Assembly: GCA_046483495.1 (NCBI GenBank)
Contig: JAWODC010000044.1
Span: forward strand, 166,247-230,246
Reading direction: 5' to 3'
DNA from: Desulfobacterales bacterium
Lineage (GTDB): Bacteria > Desulfobacterota > Desulfobacteria > Desulfobacterales > UBA5616
DNA: 64,000 bases
The position numbers were made by a program, and so were the translations under genes. This document shows positions 4,101-53,363 of this stretch, one piece after another; position 1 is the first letter of the stretch; every line of letters starts with the position of its first letter. The notes below the pieces were generated by a model. The model was not told where the DNA came from and ran no database searches. It saw only the letters and a program-made list of their open reading frames with translations.

Positions 4101-4458
4101 GATCATCCGCCAAATACCCCCTGATCTCCCGAAAATCGTTTTGATTCAAGAGCGACGGAAGGGTGTTCATGATGTGGAAGGTCAACATGTCCGGTTCGAA
4201 CAGCAGGCCGGATTGGGGTTTCAAACCAGCATTTTCAAACAAAAACCATAAAAAATCATGAGGAAAATAATAGGTGATATTGGCGCAGACAGCATTCATC
4301 TCCGCCAACTTCATGGAGACCCACTGTTCCATGCCCCGTCCATGAACGACGATCACTTCCGGGGCCAACGGATTTTCGGTGGGTTCGGAAACAATTTCGG
4401 CCAGCTTCTCCGACAATCGCTCCAATCGGTTACCGGCATAAATAAAGAGTTCCTTCAT
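1189..4458 (-). CDS. recC: Exodeoxyribonuclease V gamma subunit
   Basis: 1089 aa. N-terminal GNRLERL...PEVIVVHGRGMEQW, NPCREYW, NPLL..G..GREF, HSCHGPLREIEVLH, VMAPDI, WRAGLDRLLLGYAM, HPLQAFS are typical RecC motifs. Confidence 0.95.
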   Translation of the reverse strand: MKELFIYAGNRLERLSEKLAEIVSEPTENPLAPEVIVVHGRGMEQWVSMKLAEMNAVCANITYYFPHDFLWFLFENAGLKPQSGLLFEPDMLTFHIMNTLPSLLNQNDFREIRGYLADDPTGMKLYRLSGKLADAYNRYLLFRPEMMSSWEAGFDQHWQAELWRRLSRGNENHHRAGLRRRFFDALSKRSECRTCVLPHRVSVFGVSYLTSFHLEILDALSNHIRINLFLLNPCREYWSDIVTEKEIRHIQDRLKGRGTYDDHLEKGNPLLGNFGAMGREFFSRISELVAVDFDMFEDIGEGTVLGCVQSDMLNLRDRTGGCGMEGTAVPGGAAAQIPLNIRIHSCHGPLREIEVLHNEILAMIEENPSLAPNDFLVMAPDIDAYAPFIHAVFDAQTDGRIRIPFRIWDQNVLTGNRLVNGFMSLLDISDSRFGRKEVMRLLDIPGIMETFGIGEQNSALIEKWLNGTRIKWGIDGTHRAELGLPELNENTWRAGLDRLLLGYAMPGDNRHLFAGILPYDDIEGEETRVLGNFLQFFERLVKAKSDLEEKRTLGQWVEVLKELLEAFFGGNPQYEEDSRIVFQALARLSTAFEVSGCSRCIPLSVVKSFLQQYLAKRGEKAGGGSMGVTFCSMLPLRSIPADVVCLIGMNFDAFPRNEAPLGFDRIAANPRPGDRTKRDDDKYLFLQALMSAEERLHISYVGQSPFDNTRIPPSVVVSDLMDYLIDGCNCSESDIRVHHPLQAFSERYFSGDPNLFSYSEEDFNACRAAEDRRKSGPVQCGFIRDELPVPANASNIIALESLSRFFKHPARFFLQERLGIHLDDELWDCDEKELFELNGLDRYCLEQDLFRASGENENLLHRLELEAAAGRIPHGSTGMAAFSSLAADVAEFRRKVNEHLDRPSEEALPFRLAVGEYTITGHIDERYAADRVKASCTNIKAGYIVDAWIAHIVCCAAETDGGFDKTILIGKDVIWTFQKPLNALDLLSDLVMLYREGMKRPLVFFPETSFAYADYRIGRRLPEASAVKAARAKWIGSAFLRGESEDPYIRTCFLPHHFESLLSSGTFQQTAIRFFEPMLDHSRRLKERG

Positions 4459-4648
4459 AGAGGAATGTTTCTATTTTAAAATATCGTTGAGGAATTTGCA
4501 GCAGCGCTGCATTGAACCCAATCGTTTAAACCAACGGGGTTGTTTTCGGAAGGGTATACACTATCCTCGACCGATTGATCAATCACTGAAAAAAACGGGC
4601 GGGGTGATAACATAAAAGAAGGGTCTTGATTTTTGGAAGATTTTTATT

Positions 4649-4795
4649 TAGTGTCCATCCAGAAATGAGAAAATTCGATTCAGTTCAAGGCGGCTGACAA
4701 ATTTTAACCGCATGAATACATTGAGTATTTTGAGGATTAAAATTTTTCGGCCAACGCCGAAATGGAGCGAATCAGCCATTTCTGGATGGACACTA
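4649..4795. mobile_element. MITE-like non-autonomous element, 147 bp, 19-bp perfect terminal inverted repeats
   Basis: TAGTGTCCATCCAGAAATG (4649-4667) and its reverse complement CATTTCTGGATGGACACTA (4777-4795). TATTTA direct repeat at 4645-4650 and 4794-4799. No ORF. Related copies at 47911 and 48034. Confidence 0.75.
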
Positions 4796-13937: not shown

Positions 13938-16385
13938 CTACGGCTTGGCCATTGACGGGCTCAACACCGGTTCATCGGAAGCAGACGCCACCGGCTGGAC
14001 AGCTTCATCCTTGATCAGATAACGCGCCAGTGCAGGCAGGAGAACCATGGCGCCCACCATATTCCAGAGAAACATGAAGGTTAACAAAAATCCCATGTCC
14101 GCCTGGAATTTAATCGGCGAAAACGCCCAGGTCGCCACACCGATGGACAAGGTGATGCCGGTAAACGAAACCGCCCGGCCCGTGGTATTCAACGTCCGGT
14201 AGTAGGCGGCGGTCAGTTTATGACCTCTTTCCCGGTAATATAAAAGCCGATTGTATATATAGATACCGTAATCCACACCGATGCCGACACCCACCGCAAT
14301 GACGGGAAGGGTGGCCACCTTGATGCCGATGCCCGTTTTCGCCATCAGCGCCTCGCACAATACAGAGGTTAAAACGAGCGGCGTAACGACGCATATGGCG
14401 CCCCTGAAGTTGCGATAGGTCACCAGGCAGACCAGAAAAACGACGGCGTAAACCAACATCGTCAACATCACGAGCGCTTTTTCCACCTCGATATTCGTGG
14501 CCGCTTCGATGCCGGCGTTCCCTGCAGCCATGAGGAACCGGTATGTATCGGTGTCGTATTCTTGAGAAAAGGCTTCAACAGTCGCTACGACTCGTTCCAG
14601 CGTCTCCGCCTTGTGATCATCCAGAAACACCATGATCGGTGTCAGGTCACCGGTCTGCTTTTGAAAATCCGTAGGGATCTTGAGCACCATGTTGTCGAGT
14701 GCGACCTTGCTTCGAGGCAACGCCGTCCATTTGAGATTGCCTTCCATGAAGGCCGAATTGAGCATTTTCAAAAAGGCTACATGGCTTTTGACCATTTGAA
14801 CGCCTTTCAGCCCCGACAGCTGCCACACCAGTTTGTCCGTCGCCACCACCACTGGATATGAACTGTTGCCCGCCGGCGGTGTTTTCAGCATCACCACAAA
14901 GACATCGCTGCTGGTCGAGTAATGTTCGTTCATGTAGGCATTATCCCGGTTGTACCGCGAATCCGTCCGCAATTCAGGGGCCCCGGGATCCAGGTCGCCG
15001 GTTTTTAAATCCTGCCGGGCCCAGAGGCCGCCCGCAAGCCCTATGATAGCCAGGGCGATGGCCACATTTGCATATCGCGTTTGCGTGAATTTCGACAAAA
15101 ACACCCATGCGGGATGGTCGGTGCCGGCCTCTCGCTTTTTCAACAATTCGATCGTTTTTTGACTGATGCCGGAATAGGACATCAGGATAGGCAGCAAGGA
15201 CAAATCGGTAAAGGCCACAACAGCCACACCGATACTGGCGCCGACGGCGATATCCTGGATAACACCGATGCGTATGGACATCAGTGTGGCAAATCCGATA
15301 CAGTCGGTCAGCAGCGCCGCCAGGCCGGGTCTGTATATCTGACGGTAAGCCAGCCGTGCGGCTTTCAGCTTGTCGGCACCGCCGATCATTTCATGGGCCA
15401 TGGCATTGAACATCTGAATACCGTGGCTGACGCCCAATGCAAACATCAGAAAGGGGACCAGCATGGAATAGGGATTCATGCCGTAGCCGAACAGCCGCAT
15501 GATGCCCAATTGCCATATGACAGCCACTATAGAGGAAATGGCACGCATGGCCGTGCTCTTGACGCACCTCGAGTTAAACCACAGCAAAAATAAGAGAATG
15601 AAAAAGGCGATCAAGAAAAATAGAAGGACACGGGTCGATCCCTCGATCAAATCACCGACGATTTTGGCGAACCCGGTGATGTGGATCTTGATCGTGTCGC
15701 TTTGGAAACGGGTCCTGAGATCTTCGAGCTTTTGTGAAAAAACCTGGTAATCCAGCGGCTTGCCCGTCTCGGGGTCAATATCGTACAGGGGTGCTACAAT
15801 GACGCTGGATTTGAAATCGTTGGCCACGAGGCTGCCGACCTCACCGGATTTGAGAACATTCAACCGAACTTGGTCGAGACTGGCCTGACTGCCGTTGTAC
15901 GTCGGTGGTATGACCTCCCCACCTGCAAATCCCTCTTCGGTCACTTCCGTCCAACGGGTGATCGGTGTCCAAAGAGACTTGAGGCCGCTTCGATTCACGC
16001 CGGAAACATAAAAGACCTCATCGGTCATGTTTTTCAGGACTTCCATGTATTCTTCGGTATAAATATCCCCCTGGGTGGTCTCCACGCAAATGCGCACACG
16101 ATTGCCCAATCCCCTGAGGTCTTCCTGGTGGGCAATGTAATTTTTAATATAAGGATGATAGGTTGGAATCATCCTCAGAAAACTCGCCTCGGGTCTCATC
16201 TGCAGCATGTGATACCCGAGGAAAACGGTGATCAGTGTGAATACGGCCAAAAACAGCGGACGATTGGCAAACAGCAGCCGCTCGAGCAAGGGGGCGCTGT
16301 CCAGGTATGAATCCCCTTCATATTCATAGGCATCGTCGTTTATGTTCAGGTCATTACCCAATGATGTATTCTTCTTCCGGGTCAT
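13938..16385 (-). CDS. RND/MMPL-family transporter
   Basis: 815 aa, two TM repeats, GVSHGIQ and GIGVDYGIY motifs; last gene of the DUF1302 module. Confidence 0.9.
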   Translation of the reverse strand: MTRKKNTSLGNDLNINDDAYEYEGDSYLDSAPLLERLLFANRPLFLAVFTLITVFLGYHMLQMRPEASFLRMIPTYHPYIKNYIAHQEDLRGLGNRVRICVETTQGDIYTEEYMEVLKNMTDEVFYVSGVNRSGLKSLWTPITRWTEVTEEGFAGGEVIPPTYNGSQASLDQVRLNVLKSGEVGSLVANDFKSSVIVAPLYDIDPETGKPLDYQVFSQKLEDLRTRFQSDTIKIHITGFAKIVGDLIEGSTRVLLFFLIAFFILLFLLWFNSRCVKSTAMRAISSIVAVIWQLGIMRLFGYGMNPYSMLVPFLMFALGVSHGIQMFNAMAHEMIGGADKLKAARLAYRQIYRPGLAALLTDCIGFATLMSIRIGVIQDIAVGASIGVAVVAFTDLSLLPILMSYSGISQKTIELLKKREAGTDHPAWVFLSKFTQTRYANVAIALAIIGLAGGLWARQDLKTGDLDPGAPELRTDSRYNRDNAYMNEHYSTSSDVFVVMLKTPPAGNSSYPVVVATDKLVWQLSGLKGVQMVKSHVAFLKMLNSAFMEGNLKWTALPRSKVALDNMVLKIPTDFQKQTGDLTPIMVFLDDHKAETLERVVATVEAFSQEYDTDTYRFLMAAGNAGIEAATNIEVEKALVMLTMLVYAVVFLVCLVTYRNFRGAICVVTPLVLTSVLCEALMAKTGIGIKVATLPVIAVGVGIGVDYGIYIYNRLLYYRERGHKLTAAYYRTLNTTGRAVSFTGITLSIGVATWAFSPIKFQADMGFLLTFMFLWNMVGAMVLLPALARYLIKDEAVQPVASASDEPVLSPSMAKP

Positions 16386-16391
16386 TACGGT

Positions 16392-17582
16392 TTATCCTTT
16401 TTCTCTGCGGATTGGATCATTGAGATCTATTCGGGTATATCCTCTCAATCCAACCACCATAAGAACGTTTTCTTCGGGCTCTGCCAGAGAAATGCTCCCC
16501 GGAAAACGCACCGGAAGGCGGCTGAACGTTTTTCCGCCGTCAATGCTACGCATGACATATCCATCGACTCCGGCGATGCAAAGAGAGCCGTCTGAAAGAA
16601 GTAAGCCTCCGGAGATGGATGCGGTCATTCCGGTATCCAGCGCGGACCATGTTTCTCCCCTGTCACGGGACATATACATGTGCCCCCGCAGCCCGTATGC
16701 GGCTACAAAGCCGCCTCCAGGATCTGCGACTATGCCGAAGAAGGATCCTTCATAAGGCGATTCCAAGGCCTTCCAGGTTCTGCCGAAATCTTCGGAGCGA
16801 AACAGCATACCCCCCTCCCCCGCCATGAACAAATCACTGCCGCATCGGGTGATACCGTAAAAATGATACCCATAGGGGTTATAGATTTGATCCAGCAGCG
16901 GTTTCCAATGTTTCCCACCGTCATCCGTCCTGAAAATCATGCCGAATGAACCGATTACGAGTCCTTCCCGCTCATTTTTGAACCAAACATCCATCAGAGG
17001 CCGCGTCGGGCCTTCTTCCACCGCCAGTTCGACATCGCTGAGAAAAAATCCGAGATCTTCAATTTCAATTTTGAGCGTTTCTTTAGCATCTTCATCGAGC
17101 CCGGAATTTTCGTCCTCCAGCATGGCGGTCTTTTCGCGAATCATCTGCTTTAATTGCGCGAAGATAAGATCATTGATTTTTCGGCCGTCCAACTGCTTGA
17201 CCCATGTTCGGCCGCCGTCTTCAGAGTGCAAAATCACCCCGTCGTGCCCGACGGCCCATCCCTTTTCAGTCGTAGGGAAGTGAACCGCCGTAAGCGTGAC
17301 ACTGACCGGAACATCCGCCTGGTCCCAATCATTGCAGGCGGAATCCGACCTTAAAATAAACCCGCGTTCTCCGACCGTGAATATTTTACCGTTTACACAC
17401 TGGATATCCATCAATATCGAATTCGCCGCCCTTTCCGATTTTTCCGCCGGCATTTCCAGCAGGTCGCCGGGGTCCTGCGCAAAAACCGGTCCGGCGATAA
17501 AGAGCATGAACAATCCAATGAACAGTCCCGGCCATCGTCCACCACTTCCTGTAAATCGCTTTCCCGCGTATCTAATCGTCAT
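16392..17582 (-). CDS. YCF48/BNR-repeat beta-propeller protein
   Basis: Signal peptide, repeated SxDGGxTW (BNR) motifs, GWAVGHDG. Confidence 0.9.
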   Translation of the reverse strand: MTIRYAGKRFTGSGGRWPGLFIGLFMLFIAGPVFAQDPGDLLEMPAEKSERAANSILMDIQCVNGKIFTVGERGFILRSDSACNDWDQADVPVSVTLTAVHFPTTEKGWAVGHDGVILHSEDGGRTWVKQLDGRKINDLIFAQLKQMIREKTAMLEDENSGLDEDAKETLKIEIEDLGFFLSDVELAVEEGPTRPLMDVWFKNEREGLVIGSFGMIFRTDDGGKHWKPLLDQIYNPYGYHFYGITRCGSDLFMAGEGGMLFRSEDFGRTWKALESPYEGSFFGIVADPGGGFVAAYGLRGHMYMSRDRGETWSALDTGMTASISGGLLLSDGSLCIAGVDGYVMRSIDGGKTFSRLPVRFPGSISLAEPEENVLMVVGLRGYTRIDLNDPIRREKG

Positions 17583-17681
17583 TATTTACTTTCCCATTCA
17601 TGTAATTATGCCGTCTGCCTTCGATGCGTCTCGCGGCCTCCCATCGTTCCGGAAAACCGGAGACGCATGCCTTTTTGTCGG

Positions 17682-19076
17682 CTATCGTTTTCCAATTTTA
17701 CGAACGTTTTCCGGTGTCAGTACGTCAGGCGGCACATCCTCCCACCACAGGACTTTGCCTTGGTCTTCATAACCGTTAAGCATTCCGCTTGTGGCATAAC
17801 TGTCCGTCTGGAAATCATAGAGTGCGTAGCAGCGCTGCACCCAGCAGGGCATCGCATAATTGGCATATTGGGCGTTCATATGCATCCGCCAGAGGTTGCC
17901 GCGCGTATCGTACTTGTCATGCAGTGAATTGTTCCAGGAATCTTCATCCATATAAAGGACCCGTTTGCCGTAGCAATGGCGTTTGCCCTCTTTGAGGGTG
18001 GCCTCCACGACCCATGTCCGGTGCAGCTCCCAGCGGAAATATTCCGGATTCCAGTGGTAAGGCGTCAACAGATCGTCAACAGGCGCCAAATCGATTTGAT
18101 AGGAATTATAGCCGATAAAAATTTCCTTTTTCCCCAGCAGCTTCCAGTCGAACCGGTCGATCTGACTGTTGAACATATAGGCATCGTCATAAGTGGCCAA
18201 TCCGCCGTAGGAGGGGTTGGGCGTGTCGTAGGCGATGCTCGGGGCGCGCCTCACCCGGCGCTGTCCGGGCATGTACTGCCAGTTCCCCTTGTCCGCGATC
18301 CGGGTATAATCTAAAGGCGCTATGGACAGAATGATTTCACCTTTCCGGCGGGCAGGCTCGAAGTACTCGATCAGCACGCCTGACAGCCACCCGCTCCAGG
18401 TCTCGAGGGACCCGTCTTTGTCATAATATGGAACGTCGAAGGTGTAATACGCACCGCCGCCCACCGTCTTGCTGCCGTTGGCATGCACCAGCCAGCACCG
18501 TGTGAGCTCGCCGTGGTCCCCGCCGCTCCAGCGGCATTGATGATTGAAAACCACCTCCGCCCCGTGCTTGGGAATGGGAAACGGGACGCCGGCATATCCG
18601 CCGCGGGCACCGTTCTTGTCCTCGGTCAGTTCGAAGGTCAGGGCGTTCTGGTACGTGTTGTCATACACCCACTGGGGTGCGGCAAACGTTCGTCGGCTGG
18701 GGTACACATGCATTTTCCAGGTCTCGGGGTATTTCTTGAACATCTCCTTCACGCCATCGGAAAGCTTGTCCGCGTATTCGCCCATGTTTTCGGCGGTGAT
18801 GGTGAACAGTATTTCGTCATCGGCGAAGGGGTCGGGGAAGGTTCCGCCCGAAGCCGGGTCGTACTGTACATTGTCCGGAATGGCGGTCAAACCGCCCTCC
18901 CACGCGGGAATCGTGCCATCGGCATTGCCCGCCCGCTCGGCCCCCGTGGGGGTCAAATCCTTTTTCAGGCGCTCCGCCTCTTCTACCGATACCTTGGCCT
19001 GGAGCGGCAGTGCCGCCCACAAAAAACCGATTACCAGAAGCAAAATACTTATTTTTTTCCTTACGTTTTGCATCAT
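17682..19076 (-). CDS. DUF1329 periplasmic protein
   Basis: LTPTGAERAGNADGTIPAW, PFPIPK, GQRRVRRAP, RWELHRTWVVEATLK, DEDSW. Confidence 0.9.
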   Translation of the reverse strand: MMQNVRKKISILLLVIGFLWAALPLQAKVSVEEAERLKKDLTPTGAERAGNADGTIPAWEGGLTAIPDNVQYDPASGGTFPDPFADDEILFTITAENMGEYADKLSDGVKEMFKKYPETWKMHVYPSRRTFAAPQWVYDNTYQNALTFELTEDKNGARGGYAGVPFPIPKHGAEVVFNHQCRWSGGDHGELTRCWLVHANGSKTVGGGAYYTFDVPYYDKDGSLETWSGWLSGVLIEYFEPARRKGEIILSIAPLDYTRIADKGNWQYMPGQRRVRRAPSIAYDTPNPSYGGLATYDDAYMFNSQIDRFDWKLLGKKEIFIGYNSYQIDLAPVDDLLTPYHWNPEYFRWELHRTWVVEATLKEGKRHCYGKRVLYMDEDSWNNSLHDKYDTRGNLWRMHMNAQYANYAMPCWVQRCYALYDFQTDSYATSGMLNGYEDQGKVLWWEDVPPDVLTPENVRKIGKR

Positions 19077-19108
19077 TGAATCCTCCGTGTTTAAAAACGA
19101 TTACATCG

Positions 19109-20668
19109 TTAAAAGGTGTACTTCAGGTCCACACCGATAAAGTCGCGGTCTGCCAGACCGTACCGGTTGTTATTGAAATACGCCACATACTTGAGATTGG
19201 CCTTGTAGACGTTCTTCCAGGTGAAGTTGACCCCGATGGACCCGCTGTCCTGACCCTCTTGAAACGTGTTGTTCGGGGATGAGCCGTTGGGAAAATACTT
19301 AAAATTGATGGGGAATTCCACGTCGAGATTGGGAATCAATTGGTAGTACTTCGGGGTGACGGCCAGCGCCAATCCCCAGGAAAAGTCACTGGGTTCCATG
19401 TCATCGTTGTCCAGCCCCTGGACCTTGTTCATCCCCACCTCGCCGGCGATGGTCACGTCATCGAAAACGGGATTCTGGCCTAAAAGGTAGAGCCAGGACA
19501 ACTGGGCCTGGACCATGTTGCCGGGTTCGTACACAAACGAGGTGATGTTGATCGGATAGTCCTTGCGATAGGTGATTTCACCGCTGACCTGAACCTGCCC
19601 GACCAGCGAGCTGAAGCTGGCGCCGTAAAGTTTGATGTCTTCTCCATAACCCAGATAGTATCTAAAGGTAAAAGGATCTAAGAGCACCATCGGAGCCTTT
19701 TCGTGGTAATTGATATAATAGAAGCCGAATTCGGTCTCGAGCAGCTGATGGGAACGGTACATCAACATAAAGCCGTATTGGCCGCCTTCACTCGGATCGT
19801 CATCGTTTCCTCGACGGATTAAAATAGGTGCTCCTGTTTCCGGGTTCACACCGGCAATAATAGCGTAACCGGCCTGATCCAGCATATCGGTAGTGCTGAA
19901 GTAGCTTCCGGATTCATTCAGAATGTGCTCCTCCCATTCCCATTGGTAAAAGGCCGCCATGGAAAGGTTGCTCAAAAGGTCCATGCGCATGGATACCGAC
20001 TCCGACGGCAGGTAGATCTCCCGCAGCTCCACTCCGGGGACATTGGCCGCCGTGAGGTCCGCATGGCTCATGGCCGATGCGACACCGCCGGACAGATAGA
20101 GCTGCTCGCCCCATGCGATCACCTGCTGGCCCACCCGCAGATCCACGAGACGGCTGAGCAACTCGAAGTTGGCATAGGCGAAATAATCCAGGATGTCTAC
20201 GTCGTATCCCATCACCTCCTCGAGTTCGTCGTCGAACTCGTCCGGTTCGTCTATGGCGCCCGCCAGAAAGTTATTGTTGAATGGGTGTTTGGCCAGACCA
20301 GGATTGGAGTTTTCGTTCATGTAGACAAAATCGTAGAACGCCCGGGGCCGAAGAAAGACACCGACATTCTTGTGCTGAATGTCGATGTCGGCGATGGCGC
20401 TGAACCGGTTGTTGATCATGTCCCACTGGTCGAAGTTCCATCCGCCGTCATCGCTGTTTATACCCCCGGGAAGTTTCATCGCCACATTGTCCAGATCGCG
20501 GTCCTCCACCCGCCATCCGCCGGCCCAGGACAGGGTCACGTCGAAATCGACGATGGTGTCCCTGCTTAGACCGAACCGCATGGCGTCCGCCGACCCACAC
20601 ACCAGGAAAACACCGAAAACCAAAACAACAAAACCTAACATGTTTCTTCGATTCTTTTTGTACCTCAT
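19109..20668 (-). CDS. DUF1302 outer-membrane beta-barrel protein
   Basis: NSDDGGWNF, RVGQQVIAWGE, YQWEW, C-terminal DRDFIGVDLKYTF ending in Phe. AGGAG RBS before ATG 20668. Confidence 0.9.
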   Translation of the reverse strand: MRYKKNRRNMLGFVVLVFGVFLVCGSADAMRFGLSRDTIVDFDVTLSWAGGWRVEDRDLDNVAMKLPGGINSDDGGWNFDQWDMINNRFSAIADIDIQHKNVGVFLRPRAFYDFVYMNENSNPGLAKHPFNNNFLAGAIDEPDEFDDELEEVMGYDVDILDYFAYANFELLSRLVDLRVGQQVIAWGEQLYLSGGVASAMSHADLTAANVPGVELREIYLPSESVSMRMDLLSNLSMAAFYQWEWEEHILNESGSYFSTTDMLDQAGYAIIAGVNPETGAPILIRRGNDDDPSEGGQYGFMLMYRSHQLLETEFGFYYINYHEKAPMVLLDPFTFRYYLGYGEDIKLYGASFSSLVGQVQVSGEITYRKDYPINITSFVYEPGNMVQAQLSWLYLLGQNPVFDDVTIAGEVGMNKVQGLDNDDMEPSDFSWGLALAVTPKYYQLIPNLDVEFPINFKYFPNGSSPNNTFQEGQDSGSIGVNFTWKNVYKANLKYVAYFNNNRYGLADRDFIGVDLKYTF

Positions 20669-21388
20669 TTTTTTCTCCTCTTTTTTGGGTTTGGTTTTAT
20701 GTCTTCTCCGCATTAGAGATGCAAGGGAATTGAAACAACACCTAAGTCAAAAAAAATGAGCAAAAAAACAAATGCTTGCAAAAAAAGATACCACCATCAC
20801 CCTCCCTGCCACCATGGCACCGGCTCGTTTGGTGCGATGTTTAAGGCAAGCCCATCCGAGTACCCGTTCGATGACACATATGTGTTTGAAAAAAGGCAAA
20901 ATACGAAAGATCGATGGAAAGCGGCAGGTGAATGGGGGAAGCCGATAACAGTCGCTTGAAGCATTGACACACCGTTGATTGTTTTTATTTCAACTTTCGG
21001 AATAAAAAAATTCGGTTGGGTCATTCGATATAAAAGCCGAAAGTTTACATGGTATCGCAAGGCATACCGGAATATATCCGACAACATTGAAATGAAAGCG
21101 ATAATTGCCATTTGCATCTATGGGTTGATTCTTAGTATGTTGATTTTGTTTAGTCAATATTAAATTATGAATCAGATACAAAAAAATAAACTATTCATTT
21201 ATATTTAGAACTTATTTGATAAAATAAACTGATATATATCCATTGTGGATGCATCAGCACAGAAAATCTTTAATTTCGATGTGAAATACGAGATGGTCGT
21301 TCGCCGGTTTGGGATGATCCAAACCGCCCTGTCATGACCCCCGAATATTGAAATGAAAGCCGAGCCGAATGTGTCGGATAAGGATCGA

Positions 21389-22402
21389 TTATTGAACCGA
21401 TCGAAGAAACGTGCGCAGGTTGACTTTTTTGTGGGTGATGCCGAGCTTTGCCCTGATGTTGCGGCGATGAAATTCGATCGTGCGCAACGAAAGATTCAGG
21501 ATATCGGCGATTTCTTTGTTGACCTTTCCCTGGGTGATCAGGTCGGCCACCTGGATTTCCATCGGCGACAGGCTCAAGTGGTAAGTGGATAATTTTTGCA
21601 TCAGCGGGGACATAATGTGTTCGATGTTATTCTCAAGGATATCCAGATAGGCCTTCTGCCGTTTTTTCGGGGATATTTTTCTCAGCTTTTCCAGTGTCGG
21701 CAGAACCAGGTTTCTCAAATTCAGTGCAACCTTTTCTTCGAGTTCGGCCTTGTCCGCATCCCGCTTTTCCAGCAGCACCTTGAGCGCGATATTGGCTTCA
21801 TGCAAATGGGCGGTGCGCTGTTCGACGGTTTCCTCCAATTCCTGGTAGGCTTTCCGGAGCTTTTCCTCGGCCGCTTTGCGGTCCGTAATTTCCCGGCTGA
21901 CTCCCAGGATCAAAGAAGGTTCATCTTTCTCATTGAAAAGAAAACGTGCCTTCAATTCCACCCAAACGGTTCTGCCGCTTTCGTGCCGCTGGCCGACCTC
22001 GAGCTTGAACGGAGAATCCTGGGGCCTGTCGCAATTTTTCAACAGCGATAAAATATCGGCCATAAACCGCCTGAATTTGGTTCTTTCCTCGACAATAATG
22101 ATATCCTCCCACTCCAGGTCCATGGCCCTTTCAGGACAATACCCGAGCAGATGTCGAATGGAGGGGCTGATAAAGGTGAATTTTTCAGCGTTGAAGTCAA
22201 ACATCCAGATAACATCGGAGACATTATCGGCAAATAATTTGTACTTTTTTTCCACTTCATCGAGCTGCCGTTTCAGTTTCCGGTTTTCACAAATCAACTG
22301 TCGCCCGGTCTTCTCGTAATCCTTCATATCGTCTGGTCCATTCCCGATCATTCTTGCACAATTGCCGCGTTCCTTTTTTATCATGTTTGTAAAATAATTC
22401 AA
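21389..22402 (-). CDS. PAS-domain LuxR-family transcriptional regulator
   Basis: PAS/PAC (DVIW..WVE..GVSREITDRK), coiled coil, LuxR HTH (LSPMEIQVADLI..NKEIA..TIEFHRRNIRAKLG). Start uncertain. Confidence 0.9.
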   Translation of the reverse strand: MNYFTNMIKKERGNCARMIGNGPDDMKDYEKTGRQLICENRKLKRQLDEVEKKYKLFADNVSDVIWMFDFNAEKFTFISPSIRHLLGYCPERAMDLEWEDIIIVEERTKFRRFMADILSLLKNCDRPQDSPFKLEVGQRHESGRTVWVELKARFLFNEKDEPSLILGVSREITDRKAAEEKLRKAYQELEETVEQRTAHLHEANIALKVLLEKRDADKAELEEKVALNLRNLVLPTLEKLRKISPKKRQKAYLDILENNIEHIMSPLMQKLSTYHLSLSPMEIQVADLITQGKVNKEIADILNLSLRTIEFHRRNIRAKLGITHKKVNLRTFLRSVQ

Positions 22403-22631
22403 CTCTTCCTTACAGCTCGAATGATTGAACTTTCCTTGCCGCTCTCCGGTCCGGGCGCAGGCCTTTCAAACTCATTTTTCGCTACGGGGTTTTACTGCCA
22501 ATTCCCCAAGTTTTTACCGGCGTTGACCGGCTCTAACCAGCATTCTATAAGAAAATATCATTTAGTTTCTTCAACCCCGGCAATTCAGTTTGGGTCCATC
22601 CGGAAATCGAAACATGGAAAGGAGTTTACAG

Positions 22632-23858
22632 ATGGGAGTAAAAAGAAGAAGGCTGAACAGCTTCAGGTGTTCGGTCGGTTTAATCGCTTTGATCCTTGTG
22701 TTTTCCGTCCCCGCACTCGCGGAGGAACCCAAGGCCGGCGACGTGGTCGATTCGAGCAATATCGAACAGTATTCAGACTACCTGCCGTCCTTTTTGGCCC
22801 GTTTCGTCAAGGATGGATGGGGCTTTGAAAAACCCGTCGTCATTCACGTCACCAACCCCAAACCCTGGCCCATAACCAAGCGGTTTGCAGAAGCGACGAA
22901 AAACAACATCGGGAAGGTCACGCTCACATCCGACGGGCTGCTGGAGGACTACGAAGAAATCGGGCTTCCGTTTCCGAATCCTCAAGAGCCGGATCTCGCT
23001 TTGAAAATCATGTGGAACCGGTATTACAAGGATTTGCCCGACGACTGGAGCCTGCCCGTATCGTTCAAGTCATACACAAGGCGCAAGGGCGGCGCCGTTA
23101 ATTATTCCGACAGCATTTACGATGCACTGCAGTTCTCCGGGCGAACCTATGTAGAACCCTATCCGGTGCTCCCGAATCCGCACGGGTTGCGCCAGGCGAC
23201 CCTGTCCAATTCCCTTACTCCGCCCAACAAAGACATGGCGACATTGACCTGGCGGTATGTAGAGCCGCTCAAAATGGATGACATGTGGACTTATGTGCCG
23301 ACATTGAGAAGGACGCTTCGTATGGTTTCATCGGAAAGGGCCAATCCGATTCGGGGCCTCCCATTGACATGGGACGAACTTTTCGGGTTTGACGGCAAGG
23401 TGCCGCAATTTACCTATAAATTGTTGCGAGAGCAGAAAATTCTGGTGCTGGCCGACCAGAATAAGACAGGAGACGACATTCCGCCCGGATACGAAATTCA
23501 TCCGGTGCTGTTCGGAGAAGACGAACCCTACCAGGTGATGGATACGTATGTCGTTTCCATTAATTCTAAAGATCCGAGATATCCGAATTCGGACTGGCAC
23601 CTCTGGGTGTCGAAAAGGAATTACGCCGGCATTTACGCGGAAACGTACAACCGGCGCGGCGAATTCTGGAAAGGCTACTTCCAGTCCTTCCAGGTTCGTC
23701 CTCTCGGCGATACGGGGGAGCAGTTTCCGATCAGTATCTGCAGCGGCGTCTGTGATTTTATTACCCAGTACTGGTATTTTTCATGGACTGGTGAACTCAA
23801 CATGAACACGGGCCTCAATCCGATTCAGTTCGATCCGGGTTCATTGGGAGCCTATTGA
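22632..23858 (+). CDS. Divergent DUF1329-like periplasmic protein
   Basis: Signal peptide, GDVVDSSN, GLPFP, DDMWTYVPTLRR, YNRRGEFWK. AAGGAG RBS. Confidence 0.75.
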   Translation: MGVKRRRLNSFRCSVGLIALILVFSVPALAEEPKAGDVVDSSNIEQYSDYLPSFLARFVKDGWGFEKPVVIHVTNPKPWPITKRFAEATKNNIGKVTLTSDGLLEDYEEIGLPFPNPQEPDLALKIMWNRYYKDLPDDWSLPVSFKSYTRRKGGAVNYSDSIYDALQFSGRTYVEPYPVLPNPHGLRQATLSNSLTPPNKDMATLTWRYVEPLKMDDMWTYVPTLRRTLRMVSSERANPIRGLPLTWDELFGFDGKVPQFTYKLLREQKILVLADQNKTGDDIPPGYEIHPVLFGEDEPYQVMDTYVVSINSKDPRYPNSDWHLWVSKRNYAGIYAETYNRRGEFWKGYFQSFQVRPLGDTGEQFPISICSGVCDFITQYWYFSWTGELNMNTGLNPIQFDPGSLGAY

Positions 23859-49327: not shown

Positions 49328-50164
49328 ATGCCGATAACCGATCAAGCGATTAAAGACCTGAAGGAAAAGGCCAAAGCGTTGAGAAAGGACATCATCGATA
49401 TCACCGGATGGGCCGGCGGAGCTCACATCGGCGGTGCCCTGAGCGTTTTGGACATGTTGGTGATCCTATACGAAAAGTATTTGAATGTAGATCCGAAACG
49501 GCCCCATTGGGAGGATCGTGACCGGCTGGTGCTGAGCAAGGGGCATGGCGGGGTCGGATATGCGCCGGTTTTGGCACGGAAAGGTTTCTTCGATTTTGAT
49601 CTGCTCAAGGAATTTAATAAGTTTATGTCGCCTTTCGGCATGCATTTGGACAGTCTCAAAGTGTCCGGCGTCGATGTTTCCACCGGTTCCCTGGGGCATG
49701 GTCTTCCCATGGCAGTAGGTCTGGCACTTGGGGCCAGAGTTCAAAAAAAGAATTGGATGACATACTGTATCCTGGGAGACGGCGAATGCAATGAAGGAAC
49801 GAACTGGGAAGCCGCCATGGCTGCCGGCCATTACAACATTACCAATTTAATCACGCTTGTGGATCGAAACCGGTTAATGATCGACGGCGCCACCGAAGAC
49901 ATCCTCGGTCTCGAACCCTTCGCCGACAAATGGAAAGCCTTCGGCTTCCACGTAAAAGAGGTGGACGGACACAGTTACAAAGAGCTGTCTTCAGCGATCG
50001 ATGAAGCCCTGTCGGAAAAAAGCGCTCCCGTGGTTATCATCGCCCACACCGTAAAAGGCAAGGGCGTGGATTTCATGGAAAATGACGTTAAATGGCATTA
50101 TGGCGGACTGGATACGGACCTGATTGAGAAAGCCAAGCAATCCGTAGATAGAATGTATGGATAA
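49328..50164 (+). CDS. Transketolase-like protein, N-terminal (ThDP-binding) subunit
   Basis: HIGGALS, DRLVLSKGH, TGSLGHG, GDGECNEG..N, TVKGKG. GGAGGAG RBS. Confidence 0.92.
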   Translation: MPITDQAIKDLKEKAKALRKDIIDITGWAGGAHIGGALSVLDMLVILYEKYLNVDPKRPHWEDRDRLVLSKGHGGVGYAPVLARKGFFDFDLLKEFNKFMSPFGMHLDSLKVSGVDVSTGSLGHGLPMAVGLALGARVQKKNWMTYCILGDGECNEGTNWEAAMAAGHYNITNLITLVDRNRLMIDGATEDILGLEPFADKWKAFGFHVKEVDGHSYKELSSAIDEALSEKSAPVVIIAHTVKGKGVDFMENDVKWHYGGLDTDLIEKAKQSVDRMYG

Positions 50165-50181
50165 TCGGAAAGGAGGACCCT

Positions 50182-51192
50182 ATGCCCGAAGGTTTAACCT
50201 GGAATGTCTACGATGCCGACTCGATGACACAGGCCGAAATTTACGGCGAAGTGCTCTGCAGGTTGGGAGAGGAAAATCCAAAGATCGTTGCGCTGTCTGC
50301 GGATATGGCAAAATCGACGAAAATCGGCAAATTCGGAGAAGCATACCCCGACCGGTTCTTCAATGCCGGCATTGCCGAACAGAACATGTTCGGCATGGCC
50401 GCGGGTTTGGCGAAGTCCGGCCTGATTCCGTTTGTTTCCACAATGGCGGCGTTCACCGCGATGCGTGCGGTGGAACAGGTCCGAACCGATATTTGCTACC
50501 AGAACCTGGACTGCAAAATCATCGCCACCCATGCAGGAACCTCATTCGGAGCGGCGGGAACCACCCACCACTGCACCGAAGACCTCGCCATCATGCGCTC
50601 TTTTGCCAACATGACGGTAATCGCCCCTGCTGACGGCATAGAAACCGCCAACGCCGTCAGGGCGTGCGTCGATTATCCGGGCCCGGTGTATATTCGTATC
50701 GGCCGCGGATTCGAACCGCGGTATTATCCGGATGAAGATTATGGGTTCGAGATCGGCAGGGCCGTGGAAATCAACCCGGGAACCGATATCACGCTGATCT
50801 GTTGCGGCATAACCGTTCTTCAGGCTGCAGAAGCGTCAAAGGTATTGAAGGAGCAGGACGATCTGAGTGTGAGGGTCCTGAACATACACACCATAAAACC
50901 GATCGATGAAAAGGCCGTTCTTTCCGCCTTGAATGAAACCCGACGCATCATCACCTTCGAAGATCACAATGTACACGGTGGGCTCGGCAGTGCCGTGGCC
51001 GATGTTATCGCGTCGAGTGGAAAGGGCTGCGCTTTTGAAAAGATCGGCATTCCCGACTGTTACTGCGTTGTCGGATATCCGGAGGATCTATACTGCCATT
51101 ATAAACTGGATACGGACGGCATTGTTGAAAAAGTGCGCGAAGTTATGGGGCGCGAATTTGAAGAAGACGACGACTGGGAAGACGAGGTATAA
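50182..51192 (+). CDS. Transketolase-like protein, C-terminal (Pyr/C) subunit
   Basis: GIAEQNM, THAG, THH..EDLA, YIRIGR, IKPID, GGLGSAVA. Confidence 0.92.
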   Translation: MPEGLTWNVYDADSMTQAEIYGEVLCRLGEENPKIVALSADMAKSTKIGKFGEAYPDRFFNAGIAEQNMFGMAAGLAKSGLIPFVSTMAAFTAMRAVEQVRTDICYQNLDCKIIATHAGTSFGAAGTTHHCTEDLAIMRSFANMTVIAPADGIETANAVRACVDYPGPVYIRIGRGFEPRYYPDEDYGFEIGRAVEINPGTDITLICCGITVLQAAEASKVLKEQDDLSVRVLNIHTIKPIDEKAVLSALNETRRIITFEDHNVHGGLGSAVADVIASSGKGCAFEKIGIPDCYCVVGYPEDLYCHYKLDTDGIVEKVREVMGREFEEDDDWEDEV

Positions 51193-51193
51193 T

Positions 51194-51970
51194 ATGGCAA
51201 GCGCATCGGAAATTATGGCGGCACGAATTTATTTGAATGCGGTTTTCCCCGTGATGAAGGTCATGCTGGCCGATGATCCCGACATGAGGAAAAAATTCGA
51301 AGGGGTAACGGCAGATGTTCAATTTTCGGCACACGATGACACCGGCGACATCGGTGCCTATCTTCAGTTTAAAAACGGTGAACTGGATATCATGCAGGGA
51401 TTCAGCAGTGACCCCGCCATCACTTTTTCCTTTAAGAGCATCGCCAAAATGAATAACATGCTGGCGGGAAAACCGGTTCTGCCGAAAATTAAAGGAATGT
51501 TACACTTCCGCCTTTTGATGAAGGTCTTTTCCCTTTTGATGAGCTTGAAAATACTCATGCCGGATGCGCGTCCCAAAGAACCGGAAAAAAGGCGGCTCAA
51601 GGTCAAGATGACCCTCTACATGATCACAACAGCCCTTTCCCAGTATAACAAGGGGGGTGATCCTGAAATGACCAAATGGACCGCCAAGCAGCCGGAACGG
51701 ATCTACCAGATGTCGGTTCAAGGCGAAGATATCGCCGCTTATCTGCGGGTAAAAGCCGGAAAATCAAAAGCCGGGAGGGGTATTTACACCCGGCGGAGAC
51801 CTTTTGTACATATGAAATTCAATGGTGTGGACGGTGCTCTTCCGGTGATTCTGAATGAAGTGGGGATGGTGGAGGCTGTTGCCGGTGGTTTGCTTTCCAT
51901 TGAAGGATCACCTGAATACGGCGGTGATATCGGAAATTTTATGACCCGTATTCAAAACCTGATTTCATGA
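51194..51970 (+). CDS. Hypothetical protein with probable tandem SCP2-like domains
   Basis: Two approximately 110-130 aa halves with VQF/YQM..AYL.(F/V)K.G..G....P.(I/V)..F pattern; second half ends AVAGGLLSIEG. Confidence 0.6.
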   Translation: MASASEIMAARIYLNAVFPVMKVMLADDPDMRKKFEGVTADVQFSAHDDTGDIGAYLQFKNGELDIMQGFSSDPAITFSFKSIAKMNNMLAGKPVLPKIKGMLHFRLLMKVFSLLMSLKILMPDARPKEPEKRRLKVKMTLYMITTALSQYNKGGDPEMTKWTAKQPERIYQMSVQGEDIAAYLRVKAGKSKAGRGIYTRRRPFVHMKFNGVDGALPVILNEVGMVEAVAGGLLSIEGSPEYGGDIGNFMTRIQNLIS

Positions 51971-52007
51971 CCCAGGAAAACAGAATAAAATCATCGAGGA
52001 GGAAATT

Positions 52008-53243
52008 ATGTTCGACGTATTGATGACACCGGAACAAAAGGCATTGCGGGAAGAGGTGCGGAATTTGGTGAAAAGCATTCCCAAGCAGCTGCTTCTGGAT
52101 ATGGACGCGGATAGAATCAGCTTTCCCACGGAGTTTTTGACCGAAGCCGGAAAACGAAATCTCCTGGGCCTGCGGTTTCCGGTCAAATGGGGGGGGCGCG
52201 GGCTGACATGGGATGAAGAACTGATTGCTTTGAATGAAATTGCCACACTCGGCATCTGTTTTGCCTGCCAGTACAGCCTGGTTTCCATTGTAGGCGAAAC
52301 CATCAATGTTTACGGAACCGAAACCCAAAAAGAAAAATATCTGAAACCCACACTTGAAGGAAAGCTCTATTGCGCCGAAGCCCTTACCGAGCCTCGAGGC
52401 GGCAGCGACTTTTTCGGTGCCGTGTCCACGGCCCGCCGGGAAGGCGATCATTACATTCTGAATGGTCAAAAGCGATTTGTCGTAGGCGCCGAAGGAGCGG
52501 ACTATTTTGCCGTATATGCGAAGACCGACCCGGATGCGCCTCCACATCAATCCATCAGTCTGCTGATCGTGGAAAGAGGGGAAGGCGTTGTGGTTAAGCA
52601 TGTTTATGGTTTAATGGGGGCGCGGGGAAACGGCACCGGACGCCTGGTATTTCGGGACGTGGTCGTACCCGCCGAAAATGTTATCGGTGAAGCAAACCAG
52701 GCGACCAAGATCTTCTGGCGGATGATGATCCCTGAAAGGCTTCTTTCCGGCATCACGAGCAGCCGGGCCGCCCTCGAACTGGCCGTCCGTTATGCCAACC
52801 GGCGAAAAGCCTTCGGTCAGCCCATTCGTAACTATCAGGGCATCAATTTCAAAGTGGCCGACTGCATTACAAAACTTGATGCCGTCACGGCATTCGCTCA
52901 CACCGTAGGAAAAATCGTTCAACAGGAATTGGGCAGTACGGGGTATCGGCGGCGGTTGGTCTCGGAGGTCAAAAAATTTTCCACGCAAGCGCAATGGGAA
53001 GTCTTGAACGACTGTATGCAGATCCTCGGGGGTATCGGCTACACCAACGCTTTCCCGATTGAAAGGGAGCTTAGGGGGGCTCGGTTGTCTACGATATGGA
53101 CGGGAACCACCGAGATCCAAAATATGATCATTCAGCATGAGTATTTCAAAGAGGTGCTCCAACGAGGCATCGAAGGAAGGAATATCGAGGCGGATGTTCC
53201 GCTGACGGAAGAGGAGCTTGCTGAAGAACGCATTTATGAGTAA
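52008..53243 (+). CDS. Acyl-CoA dehydrogenase
   Basis: ALTEPRGGSD, LNGQKRFV, RKAFGQPI..YQ, QILGGIGY, IWTGTTEIQ. Confidence 0.93.
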   Translation: MFDVLMTPEQKALREEVRNLVKSIPKQLLLDMDADRISFPTEFLTEAGKRNLLGLRFPVKWGGRGLTWDEELIALNEIATLGICFACQYSLVSIVGETINVYGTETQKEKYLKPTLEGKLYCAEALTEPRGGSDFFGAVSTARREGDHYILNGQKRFVVGAEGADYFAVYAKTDPDAPPHQSISLLIVERGEGVVVKHVYGLMGARGNGTGRLVFRDVVVPAENVIGEANQATKIFWRMMIPERLLSGITSSRAALELAVRYANRRKAFGQPIRNYQGINFKVADCITKLDAVTAFAHTVGKIVQQELGSTGYRRRLVSEVKKFSTQAQWEVLNDCMQILGGIGYTNAFPIERELRGARLSTIWTGTTEIQNMIIQHEYFKEVLQRGIEGRNIEADVPLTEEELAEERIYE

Positions 53244-53363
53244 TCAGGCCAAACCCCTTTCGCTCGTCGCACTCGTGAGGCCCGTCTCGTGTTAACAAAT
53301 CGGGCCGGATGAATTCCGGCCCGATTCTATCATTTATTAACCATAACAGGAAATGCTGATCGA

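Follow-up and report, generated by a model that had tools for sequence, protein, structure and literature searches.

Known routes of sphingoid-base degradation go through a kinase and a lyase or through an oxidase. The route of sphingosine kinase and sphingosine-1-phosphate lyase needs ATP, makes its cut in one pyridoxal phosphate (PLP)-dependent retro-aldol step and releases phosphoethanolamine. For the oxidase route of Pseudomonas, the product is described as still unidentified (PMC11398299). The chemistry closest to that considered here comes from two other systems. FumI of Sphingopyxis sp. MTA144 uses pyruvate to take the 2-amino group off a sphinganine analogue, yielding alanine and a 2-ketone that its authors likened to a ketose; its proven substrate is a 1-deoxy compound (PMC3136697), and more FumI-type enzymes have been described (PMC9858248). 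For the steroid-17,20-desmolase DesAB, the proposal is that it splits a lipophilic ketol and that the C2 unit passes into the pentose-phosphate pathway (PMC3735941, PMC12876203). Here we describe an operon for a split transketolase and a tandem SCP2-fold protein, found in a 64,000-nucleotide stretch of DNA (the window) from a Desulfobacterales bacterium (GenBank assembly GCA_046483495.1, contig JAWODC010000044.1, positions 166,247 to 230,246).

We propose that the split transketolase and its SCP2 partner carry out the carbon-cleaving step of an anaerobic sphingoid-base breakdown, in which ceramide would be converted to the free base, the base to a 2-keto-1,3-diol and the diol to a fatty aldehyde and a C2 unit. 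The probability that we assign to this reading is about 0.62. It draws on what the comparison shows, namely which genes are present, their folds and key residues, their co-occurrence and a shared operator; we infer every chemical step. The comparison covered 80 related loci and a class sample of 251 genomes, divided into 30 module genomes (tktC clade plus SCP2 gene) and 221 others; the source genome (G000) is 96.7% complete at 4.19 Mb. Neighbours were counted over the 80 loci by tblastn, since clustering of open reading frames (ORFs) had dropped genes hidden under longer antisense ORFs, and the counts exclude one 24% aminotransferase match (L052) as well as cross-matches of the second SCP2 protein to the first (L052, L057, L074). 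The operon has the following features.

49328..50164, + strand: tktN, N-terminal (diphosphate-binding) subunit of the split transketolase, 278 aa (Pfam PF00456; best PDB match 6yak, E 2e-76).
50182..51192, + strand: tktC, C-terminal (Pyr + C) subunit of the split transketolase, 336 aa (Pfam PF02779 and PF02780; 6yaj, E 4e-78).
51194..51970, + strand: tandem SCP2-fold protein, 258 aa, isoelectric point (pI) 9.6, predicted lipid-carrying partner of the transketolase (predicted structure, structural matches, linkage).
52008..53243, + strand: acyl-CoA dehydrogenase of the isovaleryl/long-chain type, a local add-on outside the conserved unit (alignment, neighbourhood counts).
53298..53326, + strand: 12-pair hairpin, likely the terminator of the four-gene transcript, position being the one argument for it (terminator-like sites: 5 observed, 6.1 expected in shuffles).

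A first-pass annotation, made from the letters and translations of this DNA, had placed four ORFs in a tight operon here. Its coordinates were right: all four lie on the + strand, each has a ribosome-binding site and the gaps are 17, 1 and 37 nt. The unusual motifs to which it drew attention, GAAGTTHH and TQAEIYG in tktC, FGMHL in tktN and IWTGT in the acyl-CoA dehydrogenase, are all present in the translations.

The PP domain and the Pyr and C domains are encoded on adjacent genes, placing the enzyme in the split-type transketolase superfamily (Pfam and PDB matches). Residue numbers used here are those of E. coli, which we carried over through the motifs of a canonical transketolase of the same genome (C85). 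The thiamine diphosphate (ThDP) and metal motif GDGE-N and the E411 equivalent are invariant (42 and 80 rows), as are His33, His73, His106 and His257 of tktN, the equivalents of H26, H66, H100 and H261; the His of FGMH is thus the retained H100 equivalent, while Met105 and Tyr258 of tktN are specific to the clade. Alignment with the organism's own canonical transketolases (C85 and C78) places Ala125 of tktC at the D469 equivalent and Ala18 at the R358 equivalent. Across the related loci the former position is Ala in 80/80, and the latter is Ala in 56, Arg in 13, Asn in 6, Ser in 3, Lys in 1 and a gap in 1; the S385 equivalent is Ser in 78/80, and the E411, H461, H473 and R520 equivalents are kept in all 80. 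Three of the four phosphate ligands (R358, S385, H461, R520) are therefore kept and only the R358 equivalent is lost. The same four residues are listed as substrate ligands, in near-identical numbering, in PMC4601599. Judged as a canonical sugar-phosphate transketolase, the enzyme has neither Asp469 nor the complete four-ligand set (R358 equivalent = Ala), and both substitutions are traits of the clade and not sequencing noise. The departures from the canonical motifs on which the first-pass annotation had relied are real traits of the clade, but the FGMH His and most substrate residues are kept and loss of D469 is common: a residue other than Asp stands there in 71 of 144 scored members of the 150 nearest split-transketolase cluster representatives, and the D469 and R358 equivalents are both lost in 20 of 133 among the nearest clusters.

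The intact cofactor site, the retention of most substrate residues and the wide variation of wild-type split enzymes at D469 (PMC13663882 and our own cluster counts) would all suit a plain sugar-phosphate transketolase whose active site is permissive and whose neighbours are there by chance. We regard this as very improbable, given that the genome already has two canonical enzymes with intact motifs, that the SCP2 gene accompanies the split enzyme in 30/30 genomes and that no sugar kinase, isomerase or sugar transporter is found among the recurrent neighbours. The two canonical transketolases (C85, C78) and a DXS encoded elsewhere in the genome leave the split enzyme free for another job, and the search for further transketolase genes accordingly upholds the earlier suggestion of a non-housekeeping ThDP enzyme.

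The closest solved structure for both subunits is the split transketolase of Carboxydothermus hydrogenoformans (6yaj/6yak), which has the same split point; unlike the window enzyme, it keeps ATREAYG and GEDGASHQ and has no SCP2 partner. A plasmid search matched only split transketolases below 46% identity. The source genome also encodes a second non-canonical split transketolase (G000:C18:64474-68984, L082), 47-49% identical, with Gly at the D469 equivalent and Thr at the R358 equivalent. The tktN tree places it as the sister of the clade. Genes for a zinc dehydrogenase and a GMC oxidoreductase come next, and there is no SCP2 gene; its architecture resembles desABC, and its identity to DesB is 39%.

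The protein encoded downstream of tktC, which had been called SCP2-like, does have this fold, twice in tandem, according to AlphaFold2, VIA and Foldseek. The AlphaFold2 model has a predicted local distance difference test (pLDDT) value of 94. Residues 134-252 align with an SCP2 structure at VIA Z 11.0 (root mean square deviation 2.5, 108 aligned) and residues 11-122 at Z 9.3 (3.2, 109 aligned), and the Foldseek list for the 258-aa protein consists nearly entirely of SCP2 domains; the Pfam model PF02036 gives 20.0 bits, below its cut-off of 21.3. The gene begins 1 nt past the tktC stop and adjoins tktC in 76/80 loci, and the SCP2 protein and the tktC clade occur in the same 30/251 genomes (at least 73% identity; next match 47%). 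Prediction of the three-chain complex scored 0.57, compared with 0.01 for the best control, with contacts agreeing to at least 52% between runs and a partner pLDDT of at least 88. Of 157 solved pairs 116 attain the mark used, as do 2 of 215 mismatched ones, and the passes at a score of 0.60 or below comprise 18 of the 157 solved complexes and both passing mismatches, so that the model weakly suggests binding of the SCP2 protein to the split transketolase. The SCP2 protein is predicted to be a lipid-carrying partner of the transketolase. The conserved acidic tail of tktC, which ends in WEDEV, occupies window positions 51157-51192 (e.g. DFEEDEDWEDEV in 19/80) and faces the basic SCP2 partner (pI 9.6); it is a possible docking element. 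At three loci (L001:9489-11102, L029 and L031), an amidohydrolase resembling N-acyl deacylases adjoins the SCP2 gene.

In relatives, the usual gene order is a second SCP2 protein, a class III aminotransferase, tktN, tktC and the SCP2 protein. Neighbours recurring over the 80 loci are the aminotransferase (45), the second SCP2 protein (43), an alanine dehydrogenase (14) and a TetR regulator (11), with a zinc dehydrogenase (6) and an aldehyde dehydrogenase (4) being rarer. The cassette is found in Desulfobacterales, Bacteroidota, spirochaetes, Myxococcota, Bacillota and others, its cultured carriers including Desulfosarcina widdelii PP31 (L012) and Draconibacterium aestuarii Z1-6. The aminotransferase is present in 25/30 module genomes and in 3/221 others, and those three carry the second SCP2 gene too. 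For the 35 loci without an adjacent aminotransferase, the genome holds a match elsewhere at 42% identity or more in 18 cases and at 33% in one. In the source genome it is unlinked (G000:C93:694-2016) and was invisible to the first-pass annotation because it lies on another contig; this copy (60% identity) carries an insertion and has no SCP2 partner. The best PDB match of both the cassette enzyme and the C93 copy is FumI (6hbs, E 1e-96 and 2e-95, respectively), the next family following at 1e-50 to 1e-53, and the bit scores are likewise higher for FumI (324-327) than for glutamate-1-semialdehyde aminomutase (at most 186).

Two variants of the cassette may be recorded. The tktN frame is shortened at L135:11120-12507, in a complete genome (G131) with no aminotransferase match; the adjoining ORF is presumably transposase-like, and this module is likely a decaying copy. 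At L005:1704-5013 and six other loci a glycyl radical enzyme with its activase adjoins the cassette alanine dehydrogenase, no curated equivalog cut-off being reached.

In the pathway that we propose, ceramide would be deacylated and the sphingoid base imported, a stage seen in relatives only. The FumI-like class III aminotransferase would then pass the 2-amino group to pyruvate, yielding a 1,3-dihydroxy-2-ketone and alanine, and alanine dehydrogenase would regenerate pyruvate. Transamination of a 2-amino-1,3-diol would thereby give a transketolase donor that lacks a C4 hydroxyl. ThDP would add to the 2-keto group and C2-C3 would be cut, as in the donor half-reaction of transketolase, with release of a long-chain aldehyde (hexadecanal would be expected from sphinganine). 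Ala in place of Asp469 would fit a donor with an alkyl tail and no C4 hydroxyl, and the SCP2 protein would carry the tail. In the least certain step, the C2 unit might be transferred to an aldose phosphate, for which three phosphate ligands are kept, or released as glycolaldehyde. The aldehyde would finally be oxidised and enter beta-oxidation, to which the neighbouring acyl-CoA dehydrogenase could contribute. Substitutions at D469 allow the E. coli transketolase to accept linear aliphatic aldehydes and can reverse its stereoselectivity, the wild-type enzymes being (S)-selective (PMC3657141, PMC13663882).

The regulon of the cassette TetR provides independent evidence for sphingoid bases as the substrate. 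Orthologues of this TetR occur in 14/251 genomes: in 7 the gene adjoins the cassette, and in 5 it is divergently oriented to a gene for a neutral ceramidase. The remaining two (L204:9133-13751, L205:2731-7360) head a PLP alanine-racemase-fold gene, a GMC oxidoreductase and an aldehyde dehydrogenase; the first of these appears, by its Pfam fold, to resemble SphD. These two genomes have the same TetR and operator and no transketolase module, and the operon is possibly an alternative cleavage route. The ceramidase at L186 matches the Pseudomonas ceramidase 2zws (E 7e-160), a copy in G034 is 64% identical, and the co-regulated ceramidase bears a signal peptide. At L186 (L186:4365-5147) and at six other ceramidase loci, a gene of the Lgt family (prolipoprotein diacylglyceryl transferase-like) lies directly 3' of the ceramidase.

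A palindrome, GTGAGTGA-N4-TCACTCAC, was found upstream of 22/24 TetR genes examined. The motif was derived from DNA upstream of TetR genes and was tested on held-out targets. Where TetR stands at the cassette and the ceramidase is unlinked, the ceramidase has a site within ~200 bp in 4/5 genomes; where TetR stands at the ceramidase and the cassette is unlinked, the cassette has a site in 2/2. A strict form of the pattern gave 15 sites in 10 genomes, 5 of the 15 being training sites, compared with 4 for a reversed control. Six lie at ceramidases, five at the cassette and two at an operon for an FLVCR-like amino-alcohol transporter and a FadL-like porin, which the operator heads in 2 genomes; the remaining two (G059:C24, G086:C967) lack a plausible target, and their number is that expected by chance. 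The ceramidase of G086 has no operator site. The FLVCR-like family is best matched to choline/ethanolamine transporters, and its member here is 46-47% identical to the transporter encoded next to the cassette at 4 loci of Bacteroidota. In five spirochaete genomes, all with the TetR, 17 sites were found against 1 for the control: 5 at the cassette or its aminotransferase half, 3 at alanine-dehydrogenase-family genes, 1 at TetR, 4 at amidase-like genes and 4 elsewhere. An unlinked alanine dehydrogenase is marked by the operator in this group. The amidase-like protein (L234:3526-4518, also L233, L236, L240 and L069) is signal-peptide-like, belongs to no Pfam family and has the operator upstream in spirochaetes without PF04734. 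The second of its Atlas leads, with a score of 0.91 and 173 shared, points to permuted papain-like amidases, and the protein is a candidate non-homologous ceramidase.

Ceramidase family members above the cut-off occur in 15/30 module genomes and 8/221 others. Among genomes with the acyl-CoA dehydrogenase family, used as a match for lifestyle, the figures are 14/27 and 8/93; both contrasts are inflated by kinship.

Several observations weigh against the sphingoid-base pathway, some general and some specific to the source genome. The aminotransferase is missing from 5/30 module genomes, and 16/35 locus genomes, which may be incomplete, give no match to it. Because kin genomes are not independent, the co-occurrence counts overstate the contrast. 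Loss of D469 is not diagnostic alone, being common among the nearest split transketolases. FumI acting on sphinganine itself was not found in the FumI literature consulted. By Cahn-Ingold-Prelog reasoning, D-erythro-sphinganine would yield a (3R) ketol, whereas wild-type transketolases prefer (S); the enzyme would thus have to tolerate the (R) form, or the ketol would first have to be epimerised. This is both a cost to the model and its sharpest prediction. A ceramidase was not found in 15/30 module genomes, and 8 of the 15 ceramidase matches that were found are divergent (E 1e-29 to 1e-38; the one checked matches 2zws at E 2e-33). PF04734 ceramidases were not found in the source genome, in G072 or in the spirochaetes (0/5), and neutral ceramidase was accordingly rejected as a universal companion of the module. 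The source genome also has no match to the TetR and no second SCP2 gene, and the operator was found neither at the window operon nor at the aminotransferase, the lone site in 4.19 Mb (16.6 bits) being unrelated to the operon. Since TetR, operator, ceramidase and second SCP2 are all missing there, the substrate in the source genome is assigned by orthology, its proteins being 81-91% identical to regulon members.

These absences bear on a related explanation, in which the same chemistry serves another lipid. The natural substrate could be a different long-chain ketol or amino alcohol, such as a 1-deoxy base, capnine (a sulfonolipid base) or an amino-polyol of microbial origin; or the copy in the source genome could have drifted to a ketol that a dehydrogenase, and not the aminotransferase, supplies. 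The source genome, without any regulon marker and with an aminotransferase that has an insertion and no SCP2 partner, would suit it, as would the 1-deoxy nature of the proven FumI substrate (PMC3136697) and the zinc dehydrogenase that flanks the module in 6/80 loci, 4 of those 6 genomes having no aminotransferase match. The link to ceramidase, on the other hand, points to ceramide-derived bases, and the H100 and H473 equivalents, which mark hydroxymethyl as opposed to DXS-type methyl donors (for H100, PMC13663882), are invariant. We consider another lipid unlikely, though the least unlikely of the alternatives.

The pathway might also run in the building direction, joining a fatty aldehyde to a C2 unit from a ketose phosphate and aminating the resulting ketodiol from alanine, to make sphingoid bases without serine palmitoyltransferase. 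Both reactions are reversible, three phosphate ligands are kept, and a transketolase and transaminase cascade gives (2S,3S)-2-aminopentane-1,3-diol in vitro, according to a title in the reference list of PMC3657141. In one genome (site L238:3178, G288:C81), moreover, the operator is found 360 bp 5' of a gene resembling serine palmitoyltransferase (3538-4794; 8guh, E 3e-120), with a divergent hydrolase 168 bp away, a placement that also counts against breakdown. Biosynthesis nonetheless seems improbable to us, for the co-regulated genes encode a signal-peptide-bearing ceramidase and uptake proteins, an aldehyde dehydrogenase adjoins the cassette in 4 loci, and neither an acyl-reductase nor an N-acyltransferase is among the recurrent neighbours.

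The fourth gene of the operon is a bystander to the conserved unit and, by alignment, an ordinary isovaleryl-type enzyme. The catalytic Glu role can be filled from helix G, in place of the YEG loop. The first-pass annotation had included the acyl-CoA dehydrogenase in its pathway and had seen a catalytic anomaly in IWTGT; neither view survives comparison. Glu243 on helix G is the counterpart, in alignment, of the Glu in YERVV of isovaleryl-CoA dehydrogenase 4kto, an enzyme with IGAGT in its loop, and is present in 120/120 homologues, and on this ground a non-catalytic variant was rejected. As a core gene it was rejected because it adjoins the module in 1/80 loci (L002), a match at L026 being 27% identical and 4 kb off. 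In the 251 genomes it stands beside the module only in G000 and G072, and its family occurs in 120/251 regardless of the module. Elsewhere in the window (13938-23858) lie DUF1302, two DUF1329, Ycf48-like and RND/MMPL genes, which make up a module of the type that takes up hydrophobic compounds. This module and the HSD17B10- and HSD17B4-like short-chain dehydrogenases/reductases, which had been thought to fit the operon, are real window genes, but none is among the recurrent cassette neighbours in relatives.

Whether the module is a steroid-17,20-desmolase like DesAB, cutting the ketol side chain of corticosteroids, was examined against a desABCD-type locus (L084). This was found through a published desC primer (PMC3735941), its identity being given by an exact primer match and gene order. 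The split architecture is shared, DesB likewise has neither the D469 nor the R358 equivalent and has the GYPE-LY motif in common, SCP2 domains can bind sterols, and a zinc dehydrogenase, as in desABC, flanks 6/80 loci and the C18 paralogue. However, DesA and DesB are 36% and 42% identical to the window proteins, no higher than other split transketolases (36-47%), and the clade of the window proteins excludes them with Shimodaira-Hasegawa-like approximate likelihood ratio test (SH-aLRT) values of 98 for tktC (21/49 rows) and 99 for tktN (8/24 rows), in trees from quick searches in which DesA and DesB form long branches. With two long branches left out, an approximately unbiased (AU) test rejected DesA beside the window protein (p-AU 0.0017) and did not reject DesA as sister of the whole clade (p-AU 0.097), a distant position that a desmolase reading could use. 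Orthology to DesAB was thus rejected at the clade level, and DesAB may be a distant relative of the clade. The S385 equivalent is missing in DesB, no desD-like symporter or 20-hydroxysteroid dehydrogenase (20-HSDH) is present at the window locus, and the aminotransferase has no role in desmolase chemistry. In the one family tried, the best two 3-ketosteroid-dehydrogenase-like matches in the genome reach 276 and 248 (plus 123) bits, where the cut-off is 788. A desmolase is therefore very unlikely, and the steroid substrate of the first-pass annotation is not supported, the operon and the tree position being different, while its broader idea, a ThDP enzyme acting with a lipid-carrier partner on a hydrophobic ketol, probably stands.

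We found no description of such a pathway in the literature searched, most subscription journals lying outside the search; PMC12876203 treats DesAB only. If the sphingoid-base reading is right, it would name a pathway for sphingoid-base degradation in anaerobes of sediment, sludge and gut, with a set of marker genes, and would give the FumI family a native role and transketolase chemistry a third non-sugar use. Biocatalysis would also gain a naturally occurring transketolase that acts on C16 aldehydes, is predicted to be (R)-selective and has its own lipid-carrier subunit, of the kind that groups in this field have sought by mutation of D469. A wider picture, which we put forward tentatively and at somewhat less than even odds, is of a kinase-free and oxygen-independent sphingolipid catabolism in at least six phyla, combining ceramidase, FadL/FLVCR uptake, an SCP2-assisted FumI-type transaminase and an SCP2-assisted, (R)-selective split transketolase under the control of one sphingoid-sensing TetR. 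Nature would here run the engineered transketolase-transaminase aminodiol cascade backwards, and FumI, which detoxifies fumonisin, would have its evolutionary origin in this pathway.

The proposed pathway shares its net C2-C3 cut and its fatty aldehyde with the route of sphingosine kinase and sphingosine-1-phosphate lyase, but it would proceed without phosphorylation and use PLP and then ThDP. With its neutral ceramidase and its proposed sphingoid-base genes, the cassette regulon resembles the sphingosine-linked SphR regulon of Pseudomonas, which joins ceramidase to sphBCD (sphD being a predicted PLP aldolase). The SphR system is oxidative and periplasmic, has another regulator and includes no transketolase (PMC11398299). 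The aminotransferase has its best structural-database match in FumI, which removes the amino group of a long-chain 2-amino-3-ol, pyruvate being the acceptor. The known role of FumI concerns fumonisin, whereas the cassette enzyme is paired with SCP2 proteins and a split transketolase, in anaerobes. DesAB and the window enzyme are both two-subunit transketolase homologues without the D469 and R358 equivalents, and DesAB is a fair mechanistic precedent, yet the window enzyme is not DesAB: DesB has also lost the S385 equivalent, and the neighbours of DesAB are a 20-HSDH and a symporter, with neither SCP2 nor aminotransferase. We thus propose an apparently undescribed pathway assembled from known enzyme families, a DesAB-like ketol cleavage fed by a FumI-like step, which is a member of neither system.

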